From a virus: a DNA stretch of 64,000 nucleotides. This document shows positions 615-60,993 of the stretch, in pieces. How positions within the stretch are numbered: the first letter of the stretch is position 1; each line of letters opens with the position of its first letter. The position numbers and the translations under genes are program-made. A model generated the notes under the pieces. It did not search any database and was not told the DNA's origin. It was given only the letters and a program-made list of their open reading frames with translations. Where the stretch lies: IMG/VR virus record IMGVR_UViG_3300020190_000010, positions 32,001-96,000 of that record; one strand, given 5' to 3'.

Positions 615-2510
615 ATGGCTGATTTGGTAAAAAAAGACATTCGTTATTTATCAAGAGATTTTTCTTCTCTTAAACAAAATCTTATTGATTTTGCTAAAAA
701 TTACTTTCCAAATACATACCAAGATTTTAATGAAACATCTCCGGGTATGATGTTTTTGGAAATGGCCGCTTATGTTGGTGATGTATTATCGTATTACACC
801 GATGTTACATTACAAGAATCAATGATATTACATTCTAGTGAAAGAACAAATATATTAAATTTGGCACAATCATTGGGATATAAACCAAAAAATAGAATTG
901 CATCAAATGTTGTATTGGATATATTTCAAATAGTTCCTGCAAAAACAGTTGATGGTGAAATTGTACCAGATTATGCGTATGCATTTGCAATAGAACCGGG
1001 TATGGTTGTTGGAACAACCGGCGGTGGATTTAATACTATTGAGTTTAGAACAGTTGATTTTGTTGATTTTAAGTTTAGTAGTCCTAATGATCCAACCGAA
1101 GTAACTCCTTTTGAAGTAAATGGAAGTGGTGAAGTTTTATTTTGGTTATTAAAAAAATCAGTTAAAGCTGTTTCGGGAACAATAAAAACAGTAGATTACG
1201 AATTTACAGATCCAAAACCCTATGATAAAATTGTTTTACAAGATTTGGATATGATTGAAGTTTTATATGCAATTGACTCGGATGGAAACGTATGGCATCA
1301 TGTTCCATATTTAGCACAAGATACTATTTTTGATTCCGTTATTAACGTTTCAAGAAATGATAAAACCCTATCACAACACAGAACAGAAACACCTTATTTA
1401 TTAAAACTTAAAAAAGTTGCTAGAAGATTTACAACAAGAACTGTTGATTTGGGATCATATGAAATACAATTCGGTGCAGGTGTTGCTGATTTAGATGATG
1501 AAGTTCTTATTCCAAATCCAGATTTAGTTGGTTCATCATTAACTGGTTTAGAAGCAAATACTTCAATTGATATTGATCCTTCAAATTTTCTCTATACAAA
1601 AACATATGGTCTTGCTCCAAACAATACAACACTAACTATTCATTATACTATTGGAAAAGGTATTGATGATAATGTTCAAAGTGATGTTTTAACAAGAGTA
1701 ATTAGCAGAAATATATTACTTGATGAAACTGGATTAGATAATGTTTTATACAACCAAGTGGTATCGAGTCTTGCGGTAACAAATTCTGTACCAGCTACTG
1801 GTGGAAAAACAGCAGAAGGAATAAACGAAATTCGTCAAAATGCACTTGCTTCTTTTGCTGCTCAAAATCGTGCTGTTACAAAAGAAGATTACATAATTCG
1901 TGCATATAGTTTGCCTTCAAAATATGGTTCTATCGCTAAAGCATATATTACAAAAGATACACAGTTAATATCCGAAGCAATTTTTAATAGTGAACGGGTA
2001 CAAAATGATTTAGCATTAAATTTTTATGTTTTAGGGTATGATGCTAACAAACAATTAACTACTGTAAATAATGCAACAAAAGAAAATCTAAAAACATATC
2101 TAAATCATTATAGAATGCTTACGGATGCAATTAACATTCGTGACGCTTACATAATAAACATCGGTATTGAATTTGATATAATCATATTTCCTGATCAAAA
2201 TTCAAACCAAGTTGTTCTTCGTTGTATAAACAAATTAAAACAATACTTTAATACAAAAAAATGGCAGATAAACCAACCAATTATTATCAGTAATGTTTAT
2301 ACGGAACTTGATAAAGTAGAAGGTGTCCAAACTGTTGTTGATGTAAAAATAAATAATTTATACGATCAAACATTAGGATATTCTTCTAATGCTTACAATA
2401 TACCACAAGCAACAAAAGATGGAATTATATTTCCGTCACTTGATCCATCTATTTTTGAAATAAAATATCCCGATAATGATATTATTGGTAGAGTGAGGGC
2501 ATTTGGATGA
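615..2510 (+). CDS. Baseplate wedge protein, T4 gp6/baseplate-J-like
   Basis: RDFSSLKQNL, YQDFNETSPGMMFLEMAAYVGDVLSYY, LAQSLGYKP, EIQFGAG and QNRAVTKEDY motifs. Confidence 0.9.
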   Translation: MADLVKKDIRYLSRDFSSLKQNLIDFAKNYFPNTYQDFNETSPGMMFLEMAAYVGDVLSYYTDVTLQESMILHSSERTNILNLAQSLGYKPKNRIASNVVLDIFQIVPAKTVDGEIVPDYAYAFAIEPGMVVGTTGGGFNTIEFRTVDFVDFKFSSPNDPTEVTPFEVNGSGEVLFWLLKKSVKAVSGTIKTVDYEFTDPKPYDKIVLQDLDMIEVLYAIDSDGNVWHHVPYLAQDTIFDSVINVSRNDKTLSQHRTETPYLLKLKKVARRFTTRTVDLGSYEIQFGAGVADLDDEVLIPNPDLVGSSLTGLEANTSIDIDPSNFLYTKTYGLAPNNTTLTIHYTIGKGIDDNVQSDVLTRVISRNILLDETGLDNVLYNQVVSSLAVTNSVPATGGKTAEGINEIRQNALASFAAQNRAVTKEDYIIRAYSLPSKYGSIAKAYITKDTQLISEAIFNSERVQNDLALNFYVLGYDANKQLTTVNNATKENLKTYLNHYRMLTDAINIRDAYIINIGIEFDIIIFPDQNSNQVVLRCINKLKQYFNTKKWQINQPIIISNVYTELDKVEGVQTVVDVKINNLYDQTLGYSSNAYNIPQATKDGIIFPSLDPSIFEIKYPDNDIIGRVRAFG

Positions 2511-59355: not shown

Positions 59356-60993
59356 ATGAGTATACAAAATTTATTAAATACTTCTGGGAATCCCCACAAG
59401 CAACTTATCAAAGAAAACAAGCAAATTGTCAATAAATGGGCAAAAACTGGTCTTCTTGATAATTTGAAAAACGAATATGAAAAGAACTCTATTGCAGTTC
59501 TTCTCGAAAATCAAGCAAAACAACTTATCGACGAATCAAGCAGAACAGGTACAGCAGCTGGTTCAGAAGAATGGGCAGGTGTTGCACTTCCATTGGTTCG
59601 CCGTATTTTCTCTGAAATTGCTGCGAAAGATTTTGTTTCTGTTCAACCAATGAACTTGCCTTCTGGTCTTGTGTTCTTCTTGGACTTCAAATATGGAACA
59701 GCACAACCTGGTTTCACTGCTGGATCCGGTAAAGATTCACAAGCTGATTCAGTATTTGGTGTAACAGGTAAAGATGCAAAAGATGCTGATCCTTCAGGCG
59801 GTCTTTATGGTGCAGGTCGTTTCGGTTATTCAATCAATGAGGCACAAATAACATCTACAAAAGCTGCTGCATTGTCTTCAACAGAATTTACAACCGGATC
59901 TGTATCACACTCAACACCATCATTGTTCCAACATGACACAGAATTTAAAGATGCTTACTCTGCATCACTCGCAGCTGGTCATATTATGACTATCACAGTT
60001 CAATCTGCATCTTTCACAACACCTGATCTTGAGGCAGTTCGTGCTTTCAAAGTATCTGGCTCAACAATTCTTGGTTATTTCCCACAATACACAACAACTG
60101 CAAACAATGGTTCAACCATTACTTTCGTTGTTTCTGCTTCTGCTGCTCCTGCAACAGTAGGTATTGCTTATGAGAAACAACCAACTTCCACAACACGTAA
60201 TGACTTTGAAGAAGGTTCAGCTGGTTCAGATTTGGGTATACCAGAAATCAATCTTGAATTGCGTTCAGAGTCCATCGTTGCTAAAACACGTAAGTTGAAG
60301 GCAGTATGGACACCTGAATTTGCACAAGATTTGAATGCTTATCACTCAATTGATGCTGAAGCTGAATTGACATCTATGTTGTCTGAATACATTTCACAAG
60401 AAATTGATTTGGAAATTCTTGATATGTTGATTAAGAATGCACAAACAACAGAAAGATGGTCAGCTCGTATTGGTCGCACATATGATGCTTCTACAAGTGC
60501 ATTTGGTGACTATTCATCTGCTCAGGCACAGGCATCCGCTTACAATCAACAAACATGGTTCCAAACACTTGGCACAAAGATTCAAAAAGTATCAAACGTA
60601 ATTCATCAGAAAACACTTCGTGGTGGTGCAAACTTCCTCGTATGTTCTCCACAAGTTGCTACAATACTTGAATCAATGCCTGGCTATGCAGTTGATGGTG
60701 AAGGTATGAAATTCGCAATGGGTGTTCAAAAAGTTGGTCAATTGAATGGCCGTATCACAGTTTACAAGAATCCTTACATGCTTGAAAATCAAGTTCTTGT
60801 AGGTTTCCGTGGAACACAATTCCTCGAAACTGGTGCTGTGTATGCTCCATACATTCCACTTGTAATGACACCGTTGGTATATGATCCAACGAACTTCACA
60901 CCAAGAAAAGGCGTGATGACTCGTTATGCGAAGAAGATTGTTCGTCCAGAGTTCTATGGTCTTATACAAATCGATTCTCTCGGTGACATCTAA
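59356..60993 (+). CDS. Major capsid protein (T4 gp23-like)
   Basis: LLENQ, LVRR, VSVQPM..PSGLVF, AKTRKLKA.W.PE.AQDL.A.H..DAEAEL, YAPYIPL, P.KGVMTRY. Confidence 0.97.
   Translation: MSIQNLLNTSGNPHKQLIKENKQIVNKWAKTGLLDNLKNEYEKNSIAVLLENQAKQLIDESSRTGTAAGSEEWAGVALPLVRRIFSEIAAKDFVSVQPMNLPSGLVFFLDFKYGTAQPGFTAGSGKDSQADSVFGVTGKDAKDADPSGGLYGAGRFGYSINEAQITSTKAAALSSTEFTTGSVSHSTPSLFQHDTEFKDAYSASLAAGHIMTITVQSASFTTPDLEAVRAFKVSGSTILGYFPQYTTTANNGSTITFVVSASAAPATVGIAYEKQPTSTTRNDFEEGSAGSDLGIPEINLELRSESIVAKTRKLKAVWTPEFAQDLNAYHSIDAEAELTSMLSEYISQEIDLEILDMLIKNAQTTERWSARIGRTYDASTSAFGDYSSAQAQASAYNQQTWFQTLGTKIQKVSNVIHQKTLRGGANFLVCSPQVATILESMPGYAVDGEGMKFAMGVQKVGQLNGRITVYKNPYMLENQVLVGFRGTQFLETGAVYAPYIPLVMTPLVYDPTNFTPRKGVMTRYAKKIVRPEFYGLIQIDSLGDI

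Follow-up and report, generated by a model that had tools for sequence, protein, structure and literature searches.

A serine-specific [ST]GS motif in baseplate and fibre proteins from one lineage of aquatic myoviruses: a candidate tag for virion O-glycosylation

The [ST]GS motif in baseplate and fibre proteins

The window analysed here is the 64,000-nucleotide stretch from base 32001 to base 96000 of the virus record IMGVR_UViG_3300020190_000010 (the query phage), a single contig of 137,492 bp that CheckV rates 78% complete. It encodes a series of baseplate and fibre proteins in which a tripeptide, serine or threonine followed by glycine and serine ([ST]GS), recurs, together with several putative glycosyltransferases (GTs). 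The guanine-plus-cytosine content of the window is low (27-40%) and almost every gene lies on the + strand. Gene identities were assigned by PHROG, Pfam and NCBIfam searches. By protein similarity the nearest deposited phages are Microcystis phage Mel-JY01, the Flavobacterium phages vB_FspM_immuto (immuto) and the 484-kb assembly LR756508, with Rhodothermus phage RM378 a distant relative; a DNA search found no close annotated relative, returning only two trivial 43-bp matches. As Flavobacterium phages are among the nearest isolates, Bacteroidota is a possible host phylum.

An earlier reading of the letters alone, here called the original prediction, had named 11 open reading frames (ORFs) in which [ST]GS recurs. 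For each of 48 non-nested + strand ORFs, the number of motifs was set against 2000 composition-preserving shuffles of the same protein. Twelve of the 48 lie above their shuffles at p<=0.022, and these include all 11 named ORFs; the twelfth is the fibre encoded at 24171. Sizes are in amino acids (aa), ORFs are named by their first base, and [ST]GS counts are given as observed against expected:

2507..3676, + strand, 389-aa baseplate-module protein directly downstream of the gp6-like wedge gene (3 against 0.48)
4764..8762, + strand, 1332-aa structural protein with no family match (8 against 0.83)
9650..10822, + strand, 390-aa paralogue of a family termed family A below (8 against 0.96)
10825..11910, + strand, 361-aa family-A paralogue (7 against 0.74)
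11919..15485, + strand, 1188-aa protein whose C-terminal ~360 aa are a family-A domain (8 against 1.18, with 7 of the 8 sites in the domain)
16047..17330, + strand, 427-aa family-A paralogue, the protein modelled below (9 against 0.41)
17330..19045, + strand, 571-aa protein combining a Laminin_G_3 (ConA-like) domain with a short family-A-like stretch at its C-terminus (3 against 0.56)
24171..30728, + strand, 2185-aa collagen-like tail fibre (146 against 41.1)
30740..31315, + strand, 191-aa protein with short TGSF/TGSL repeats (8 against 1.08)
31376..32920, + strand, 514-aa fibre-like protein with the repeat unit ...HQFTGSLxxSGSL... (17 against 2.91)
32944..34260, + strand, 438-aa fibre protein with the N-terminal sequence WKKIIVSGS, as in 39976 (7 against 1.97)
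39976..41079, + strand, 367-aa collagen-like fibre (14 against 4.46; PF01391, 78.9 bits against 27.2)

The genes from 2507 to 19045 form a block of unnamed structural proteins, and 2507 itself has only a weak, below-cut-off match to CBM96. In the paralogues, which had been judged by eye to hold about seven to nine sites each, we count 8, 7 and 9. Single sites in 17330 (SGSLDEIRIY) and 4764 (SGSIFELRYW) stand at what is probably the conserved C-terminal Gly position of Laminin_G_3 domains.

When every tripeptide of the ten non-collagen proteins (5801 aa) was scanned, SGS ranked first (47 against 6.39 expected, 7.4-fold) and TGS second (31 against 4.78, 6.5-fold), while SGT (6 against 4.78) and TGT (4 against 3.96) were flat. 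In these proteins the excess predicted from the letters thus survives correction for Ser, Gly and Thr content. Their 78 sites are encoded by 39 distinct 9-mers that use both Ser codon families (AGY and TCN), which argues that selection acts at the protein level; a cause at the DNA level (slippage, a nucleotide motif or a DNA repeat) was rejected on the same grounds. The flanks are also biased, with V, L, I, Y or F at position -1 (V 3.6-fold) and L (3.1-fold) or N (2.5-fold) at position +1. The xSAS variant noted alongside [ST]GS does show some excess, albeit a weak one ([ST]AS, 16 against 6.6, p=0.0013).

The fibre repeat had been described as a chain of S-G-S/T. ORF 24171 is indeed rich in [ST]GS, but its repeat is a collagen-like G-X-Y array with Ser or Thr at X and Ser at Y, forming nine runs and 291 triplets (the longest run has 169), and it matches PHROG collagen-like tail fibres. 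A further ORF, 47892, has one run of 28 triplets. Only 39976 was assigned by PF01391; 24171 and 47892 were called from their G-X-Y runs, the former also from PHROG. Most [ST]GS sites of these proteins fall within the runs (139 of 146 in 24171, 10 of 14 in 39976, and all three in 47892), and shuffles that preserve the periodicity give 127.9+-2.9, 8.1 and 1.9, respectively, so G-X-Y periodicity accounts for nearly all of the collagen-fibre counts. Outside its runs, 39976 still holds 4 sites against 0.7. Of interest beside such fibres, Mel-JY01 carries an annotated prolyl 4-hydroxylase (L191:3096-3695) ~17 kb upstream of its baseplate genes. The N-terminal peptide common to 32944 and 39976 (encoded at 32944-32980 and 39976-40010), between which BLAST with low-complexity filtering finds no similarity, is probably an attachment module for baseplate docking.

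Across the genome, enriched proteins are limited to the baseplate-to-fibre block and one family-A member encoded at genome positions 132578-135343 (10 against 0.91). The sheath (4 against 0.94) and neck protein (3 against 0.32) have a faint excess. The major capsid protein (59356..60993, + strand) has 2 sites against 0.68, which is not significant, and 5 against 1.56 for [ST][GA]S (p=0.017). Neither the tape measure (1 against 1.27) nor a 2488-aa protein (1 against 2.94) is enriched, nor are the portal, gp25-like and gp6-like proteins. The same is true of an RCC1-repeat protein encoded among the fibre genes (1 against 2.5), despite its content of 11% Ser, 11% Thr and 14% Gly. The original prediction had also held that the motif is absent from the primase, the fused SbcD-SbcC protein, TerL, portal, gp25-like and gp6-like proteins. 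These six proteins do have zero sites, but only 1.24 would be expected (P(0)=0.29), and the 35 other proteins taken together have 4 against 7.46 (P=0.13); depletion from enzymes was consequently rejected as evidence.

The motif-bearing proteins fall into families that are unrelated by BLAST, namely family A, 2507, 4764, 17330, 30740, 31376 and 32944, to which the collagen-like group is added. There are fewer independent families than ORFs, since a single paralogous domain recurs in five of the proteins. That domain defines family A, whose members are 9650, 10825, the C-terminus of 11919, 16047 and the C-terminus of the genome ORF at 132578-135343 (32-52% identity). At least 450 relatives are present in viral contigs, and in a large protein set at least 1,940 were found at E<=1e-5 among 8,000 scored candidates. 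All 120 listed homologues carry 4-13 sites each against ~0.5 expected. In an alignment of 62 family-A sequences the motif occupies eight columns in 100, 98, 87, 81, 77, 77, 55 and 40% of sequences. The third-position Ser is kept in 57-62 of the 62 at the seven resolved columns, the eighth being broken by a gap, whereas at two columns the middle residue can be G, S or A. The motif is better written [ST]-[G>S,A]-S, and its most constrained residue is the third-position Ser.

An AlphaFold monomer model of 16047 built on the same alignment (predicted local distance difference test, pLDDT, 79; predicted template modelling score, pTM, 0.67) places the motif residues mostly outside regular secondary structure: by DSSP they are 70% coil, 19% strand and 11% helix, against 46/34/20% for the whole protein. 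An invariant SGSGS forms the predicted loop between strands 126-134 and 142-146. Foldseek found no match to the family-A model in the PDB at E<=0.001. The best hits of a wide VIA-align search were small phage tail or baseplate domains (Z 5.0, 72 residues, root-mean-square deviation 2.6), with no fold recognised.

Candidate glycosyltransferases in the window and in related phages

A four-gene glycan cassette (34518-39929) sits between the motif-rich fibre genes 32944 and 39976, and two further genes of interest lie downstream of it:

34518..36137, + strand, cassette gene 1, 539 aa, Glycos_transf_1 (GT4-type; 58.8 bits against 26.4) and Glyco_transf_25 (24.5 against 24)
36121..37698, + strand, cassette gene 2, 525 aa, carrying an FkbM-family methyltransferase domain at its C-terminus
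37685..38797, + strand, cassette gene 3, 370 aa, with no hidden Markov model or PDB sequence match and a language-model lead to a GT8 cluster (0.92), which is a lead only
38769..39929, + strand, cassette gene 4, 386 aa, homologue of Aah/TibC-family protein O-heptosyltransferases
43344..44348, + strand, 334-aa protein with a predicted GT-B fold and four N-terminal helices, candidate second glycosyltransferase
44348..45133, + strand, 261-aa protein of uncertain status with weak, sub-threshold GT2-type matches

Judged by its sequence, ORF 38769 is a true member of the Aah/TibC family. It scores 285.5 bits against the equivalog model TIGR04414 ('autotransporter strand-loop-strand O-heptosyltransferase'; cut-off 200), with residues 24-382 covering positions 11-373 of 374, and phmmer matches it to TibC in the PDB (4rap, E 1.5e-60, residues 64-385 against 60-388). 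Residues were mapped by hand from the printed TibC alignment, with residue roles as given in PMC4358343. There, Asp-110 is the catalytic base and Thr-226, Lys-230, Arg-286 and Trp-305 bind the sugar. The catalytic Asp is kept in 38769 as D113 (LGDLLGW becomes LGDTLAW), the numbering being confirmed by the D110A chain 4rb4, which has Ala at this position. Three of the four sugar-binding residues (Thr-226, Lys-230 and Trp-305) are also kept; Arg-286 is replaced by Leu, with a Lys two residues downstream, and the stereoselectivity residue Pro-300 aligns with Gly. In view of these two replacements the donor sugar is uncertain and may differ from that of TibC. The iron-finger Cys residues 339, 342, 358 and 370 are all Cys (vCngC, wCpehk, feCt), and in the beta-hairpin thumb Phe-265 and Val-266 become Tyr-Met, keeping two consecutive hydrophobic residues. 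The neighbours of 38769 are phage fibre genes and other GT genes, and no autotransporter gene lies next to it.

According to PMC4358343 and PMC3835316, the Aah/TibC family recognises a strand-loop-strand element and glycosylates Ser in the loops of beta-rich adhesins. In PMC4358343, TibA is described as carrying heptose on Ser rather than Thr at N-S-G-G and T-S-A-A loops of its beta-helix. The family is characterised by dodecameric rings and takes the heptose for its beta-helical partner from ADP-heptose.

TibC-like genes are frequent in viral contigs, with at least 127 confirmed relatives, of which 80 loci were kept. At least one ORF enriched in [ST]GS at p<1e-3 is present in 45 of these loci, a count that was not de-duplicated and in which collagen-like ORFs were not separated. 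The 80 loci hold 845 ORFs of at least 150 aa; 517 of them are without a relative in the query genome and form 189 clusters, and dropping 19 clusters with more than 35% Ser, Gly and Thr leaves 170 representatives. The top tripeptides of these unrelated neighbours (loci L006-L085) are HQE (77 against 7.8), TPT (86 against 13.2), EHQ and VHQ, which points to one or more unrelated repeat-protein families beside TibC-like genes. In several relatives the TibC-like domain is part of a longer open frame of 697-921 aa. One such case is a 704-aa frame with both TibC-like and Glycos_transf_1 domains at C1:62174-63745 of G040, a complete 253-kb genome; the corresponding region of Mel-JY01 is annotated 'methyltransferase FkbM'. 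This fusion, and the position of 38769 beside GT4/GT25, FkbM and GT8-like genes, suggest a longer, methylated glycan rather than a mono-heptose.

ORF 43344 has 1,339 homologues and no Pfam domain. Its AlphaFold 2 model (pLDDT 85, pTM 0.87) is matched best by Foldseek to TibC (4rap, E 4.2e-7, template modelling scores 0.50/0.44), followed by the GT9 structure 3tov, WaaF (1psw) and WaaC, and an atlas lead agrees. A six-frame search against PF01075 stayed below the gathering threshold (14.2 bits against 22), hmmscan gave nothing at E<=0.01, and no NCBIfam match and no PDB sequence or profile match were found. The model suggests that 43344 may work like a GT9-type enzyme, though by sequence it fails the PF01075 threshold for GT9 membership. 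A homologue is present in G021, a 177-kb genome (CheckV 100%) that is syntenic with the query; a single-protein search with G021 as positive control found none in G040, Mel-JY01, immuto, RM378 or LR756508.

The distribution of these enzymes was compared with that of the motif in seven informative genomes, in which the motif carriers form one clade. G021 lacks the whole block 34518-39929: blastp found no counterpart, tblastn none below E 0.01 for the four genes, and there is no TIGR04414 match, the fibre genes that flank the missing cassette being 258 bp apart. The 191-aa protein 30740 also has no homologue there. The motif counts nonetheless persist from query to G021, both in baseplate-module proteins (2507, 3 to 4; 4764, 8 to 10; 17330, 3 to 3) and in family A (9650, 8 to 7; 10825, 7 to 4; 11919, 8 to 7; 16047, 9 to 7; genome ORF 132578, 10 to 7). 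The fibre proteins behave alike (32944, 7 to 7; 31376, 17 to 15, the latter against 3.13 expected and with 14 sites in common). In total, 64 of 86 sites (74%) occupy the same aligned column, against a background of 29% for identical triplets.

Other relatives show the same pattern. G040 and Mel-JY01 have a TibC-like gene, lack 43344 and are strongly enriched. Immuto, a complete isolate, has no TibC-like gene, no 43344-like gene and no PF01075 match, and is still enriched ~4-7-fold (family A, 4 against 0.59 and 5 against 0.68; tail spike, 26 against 5.9). G047 is likewise enriched without a TibC-like or 43344-like match. Its 132 kb yielded no match to PF01075, PF00534, PF00535, TIGR04414, 43344 or the GT pair described below; it was rejected as a GT-free test case, being 70% complete and ending before the region that carries the GT pair in relatives. 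The 2507 orthologues have 4 sites against 0.46 in G021, 6 against 0.41 in G047 and 4 against 0.36 in Mel-JY01, and the 4764 homologue in G047 (30% identity) has 8 against 1.31. TibC-like genes occur in 8 of 48 records with family A, most of which are fragments. Covariation of the motif with a transferase, as expected from the original prediction, therefore fails for the cassette enzymes, since G021, immuto and G047 are motif-positive without a TibC-like gene. It fails for 43344 too, and holds only for a conserved GT pair that lies off the query contig, in a single clade.

Outside this sub-lineage, which comprises the query phage, G021, G040, G047, immuto and Mel-JY01, LR756508 and RM378 have the same protein families without the motif enrichment. 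In LR756508 the genes follow one another as in the query (gp6-like, 2507-like, 4764-like, family A, 17330-like, primase, SbcCD), and the counts in this syntenic module are 0 against 0.24 for the 2507 homologue, 2 against 0.86 for that of 4764, and then 3 against 0.34 and 0 against 0.14. The family-A homologue of RM378 (26% identity) has 1 against 0.43, and none of 13 tested RM378 proteins is enriched. Eighteen baseplate, fibre, sheath and head proteins of T4 total 7 against 11.1, SGS and TGS are not among their enriched tripeptides, and gp37, gp12 and wac, of similar composition, are not enriched. The motif is thus a trait of one sub-lineage and not a requirement of the fold or a generic property of fibres.

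The complete motif-bearing genomes share a syntenic GT core consisting of a ~475-aa GT, a ~430-aa RfaG-like GT and a ~207-aa GT2. It lies at 49.2-53.0 kb in immuto, 6.8-10.2 kb in G021 and ~209-212.5 kb in G040 (37-47% identity to the immuto genes), and the first two GTs were found in Mel-JY01. In immuto the core stands at the head of an 11-kb cluster that also encodes aminotransferases, one methyltransferase, one epimerase and an annotated 'pilin glycosylation protein'. The RfaG-like GT is present in all four complete motif-bearing genomes (G021, G040, immuto and Mel-JY01) and in none of the three motif-free ones (LR756508, RM378 and T4). Relatives of the first GT of the pair in LR756508 and RM378 are only weak (27-34% identity).

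Possible roles of the motif

A pattern that is confined to one lineage, spans several folds and prefers Ser strictly over Thr suggests a trans-acting reader. As the likeliest reading we tentatively propose, with confidence a little short of even, that the motif is a putative acceptor tag for virion O-glycosylation. One sub-lineage of aquatic myoviruses with T4-like baseplates has acquired an [ST]-G-S loop motif in many unrelated outer virion proteins and holds it at fixed positions in baseplate-periphery proteins, family-A paralogues and fibres; sheath, neck and capsid show it faintly. Phage-encoded GTs would act in the host cytoplasm before or during assembly, an enzyme reading the motif and attaching a sugar from some nucleotide-sugar donor, presumably to a Ser; reader, acceptor, donor and attachment are all parts that we infer. 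The core enzymes would be the conserved pair (the ~475-aa GT and the ~430-aa RfaG-like GT), followed by the GT2. The four-gene cassette and 43344 would be swappable accessories, probably adding or elaborating sugars on adjacent fibres, and would not be the origin of the motif. That the conserved pair itself reads an [ST]-[GAS]-S code on at least ten outer proteins, while swappable cassettes diversify the fibre glycan, is possible but more doubtful.

The closest known systems are the TibC-TibA and Aah-AIDA-I pairs of E. coli (BAHT; TIGR04414; 4rap/4rb4), to which 38769 belongs at the level of the sequence family. According to PMC4358343 and PMC3835316, enzymes of this family hyper-glycosylate Ser residues located in short loops of beta-rich surface proteins whose genes lie beside their own, and the sites N-S-G-G and T-S-A-A recorded in the former resemble the phage [ST]-G-S. 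Unlike the bacterial pairs, 38769 belongs to a phage fibre module with additional GT and FkbM genes and no autotransporter, it carries the Arg-286 to Leu and Pro-300 to Gly replacements, and its putative substrates keep the motif in relatives that lack the enzyme. In the mycobacteriophages, phage GTs modify the phage's own structural proteins, the glycans being placed at the C-termini of capsid and tail-tube subunits according to the summary in PMC12619734. Candidate phage-encoded GTs would here act likewise on the phage's own structural proteins; the differences from the mycobacteriophage system are a tripeptide spread across ~10 baseplate and fibre proteins, an aquatic myovirus lineage and other enzyme families.

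Two further systems invite comparison. BclA of the Bacillus anthracis exosporium is a collagen-like G-X-Y fibre whose Thr and Ser residues in X and Y bear O-linked sugars; the G-[ST]-S triplets of 24171, 39976 and 47892 near the glycan cassette are similar, and organism and enzymes differ. The general protein O-glycosylation system of Bacteroidota uses a three-residue motif, D-[ST]-[AILVMT]. It resembles the present case in having a short three-residue acceptor on many unrelated exported proteins, but the motif is another one, and the Bacteroidota system is periplasmic, lipid-linked and host-encoded, whereas the enzymes here are soluble, cytoplasmic-type nucleotide-sugar GTs encoded by the phage. 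Mycobacteriophage virion glycosylation was reportedly described by Freeman et al. in Cell Host Microbe in 2023.

Full-text literature searches found no Aah/TibC-family enzyme described in a phage and no sequon-like motif across phage tail proteins; Aah/TibC-type protein O-heptosyltransferases have so far been described for bacterial adhesins only. Glycosylation of virions by phage enzymes has apparently been demonstrated only for mycobacteriophages (cited in PMC12619734). Were the glycosylation proposal true, it would mean a common, unrecognised virion surface chemistry in lakes and oceans that bears on adsorption, on host range and on how stable the particles are. The sugar coat would be encoded by the phage and vary from strain to strain, and it could also affect recognition by host defences. 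Two motif-bearing relatives are in culture, immuto with the GT pair only and Mel-JY01 with the pair and a TibC-like gene, so the proposal can be tested.

Several observations weigh against it. The distribution of the motif follows neither of the GT9-type enzymes. The GT pair is missing from two incomplete sequences, the query contig and G047; the ends of the query contig map to ~140 kb and ~27 kb of G021 and leave uncovered the arc that bears the pair, which, extrapolating from the relatives, probably lies beyond the contig ends. The covariation of pair and motif is that of a single clade, fully confounded by phylogeny, and is not independent evidence: the deposited phages with the GT pair are the same set as those with family A and a gp6-like protein. 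The target of the pair could also be DNA or host polysaccharide. Among the 170 unrelated neighbours of TibC-like genes the excess is small and less specific (SGS 49 against 23.7, 2.1-fold; TGS 33 against 20.8, 1.6-fold; SGT 32 against 20.8). Finally, in the 16047 model the invariant SGS at 263 is found where a strand ends and the SGS at 322 where a helix ends, and one site falls within a strand. A strict strand-motif-strand rule (a strand no more than 3 residues ahead of the site and another no more than 8 residues behind it) applies to 3 of 9 sites and to 40% of all positions, although 7 of the 9 have a strand within 8 residues after. The near-invariant sites, found in 100% and 98% of the 62 family-A sequences, would also fit a structural role.

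A structural or assembly motif, acting as a tight turn, a capping element or an inter-subunit contact, with the GTs coincidental or acting on DNA or the host envelope, is hence a serious rival, if on balance an unlikely one. It would account for the fixed alignment columns, for the 74% of sites shared with the cassette-less G021, for the persistence of the motif in immuto without any GT9-type enzyme, and for the concentration of motif residues in predicted loops and strand ends. The six-residue spacing in 31376 (TGSLxxSGSL) and the G-X-Y periodicity of the collagen-like fibres are also consistent with it. Turn preferences are universal, however, and yet the corresponding families of LR756508 and RM378 and the baseplate and fibres of T4 are not enriched; nor is the beta-rich, Ser/Thr/Gly-rich RCC1 protein. 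Several unrelated folds of the same virion also carry the motif together, and it requires Ser at position 3, where Thr does not serve; a simple turn would not usually be so strict. Should the motif prove structural after all, it would represent a rule of construction particular to this lineage and not explained by any requirement of the fold.

The case for a trans-acting reader does not say which one, and the motif might instead tag proteins for a fibre or baseplate assembly chaperone, or for phosphorylation or ADP-ribosylation. A tail-fibre-assembly-type protein (45177) is indeed encoded in both the query and G021, but it has no match in G047, and no candidate with a matching distribution was found. 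A fibre chaperone would, moreover, be an odd reader of family A and the Laminin_G_3 protein, which are not fibrous, and we regard this explanation as improbable.

Of the idea that one modifying enzyme recognises the motif across unrelated folds, the first part has held up: the motif is real, strict in sequence, conserved in position and present in BLAST-unrelated outer virion proteins, and an Aah/TibC-type ORF does lie among the fibre genes. No single identifiable enzyme explains it. In its strict form, with 38769 (or 43344) as the one reader, the idea draws support from the equivalog-level match of 38769, its retained Asp and four Cys, the location of the cassette between two motif-rich fibre genes, the at least 127 viral-contig relatives with [ST]GS-enriched ORFs in 45 of 80 kept loci, and the S-G-G and S-A-A acceptor loops given for the family in PMC4358343. 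Against this stand the persistence of the motif in G021 without the cassette and in immuto and G047 without either enzyme, the absence of 43344 from G040 and Mel-JY01, the presence of a TibC-like gene in only 8 of the 48 family-A records (mostly fragments), and the uncertain donor of 38769 implied by its two replacements. As a sole cause it is largely refuted and very improbable.

An artefact of Ser/Gly/Thr-rich repetitive proteins and paralogy can be dismissed for the non-collagen proteins: periodicity does explain the collagen-like parts, five proteins share one domain and 31376 and 30740 have internal repeats, but the excess over shuffles is 7- to 22-fold in the non-repetitive 4764, 16047 and 9650, SGS and TGS head an unbiased scan in which SGT and TGT are flat, the non-collagen part of 39976 is itself enriched, and proteins of similar composition (RCC1, T4 gp37, gp12 and wac) are not.

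Other genes of the window

The remaining assigned genes are given in window order:

106, gp25-like protein of the T4-type baseplate
615, gp6-like wedge protein of the T4-type baseplate
between the blocks at 19045 and 24171, an endonuclease, then a primase, then a fused SbcD-SbcC protein (1059 aa)
45177, tail-fibre-assembly-type protein
upstream of the major capsid protein at 59356, TerL, portal and prohead protease

The sheath, tape measure and neck protein genes lie directly downstream of the window.

At the baseplate position occupied in the query by ORF 3679, G047 encodes a 462-aa protein (L179:3374-4762) whose PA14 carbohydrate-binding domain scores 27 bits (cut-off 24), so this slot looks like a swappable module. 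Within the fibre module, the ORF at 41089-43266 encodes a 725-aa RCC1-repeat beta-propeller (PF25390, 511 bits; 45% identity in G021), which is possibly a receptor-binding propeller.

ORF 45631-46374 (247 aa) was considered as a sugar-nucleotide enzyme and rejected, its cytidylyl- and adenylyltransferase matches being weak. A role in nicotinamide adenine dinucleotide salvage is more likely, since the fused immuto homologue is annotated as nicotinamide mononucleotide adenylyltransferase, NadR. The ORF corresponds to the N-terminal part of longer proteins in G021 (L170:4367-6658, 763 aa), G047 (L180:12375-15110, 911 aa) and immuto (NC_055915 107131-109854, 907 aa, annotated NadR). Pfam searches with the fused 911-aa and 763-aa forms gave no match, and the query ORF may be a truncated or split version.

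The fused SbcD-SbcC gene (20990-24169) joins an SbcD-like (Mre11) part, matching phrog_100 over residues 16-346, to an SbcC-like (Rad50) part, matching phrog_77 over residues 299-1058. The fusion is retained in G021, G047 and Mel-JY01-type relatives, and LR756508 has two ORFs in its place (243 and 861 aa).

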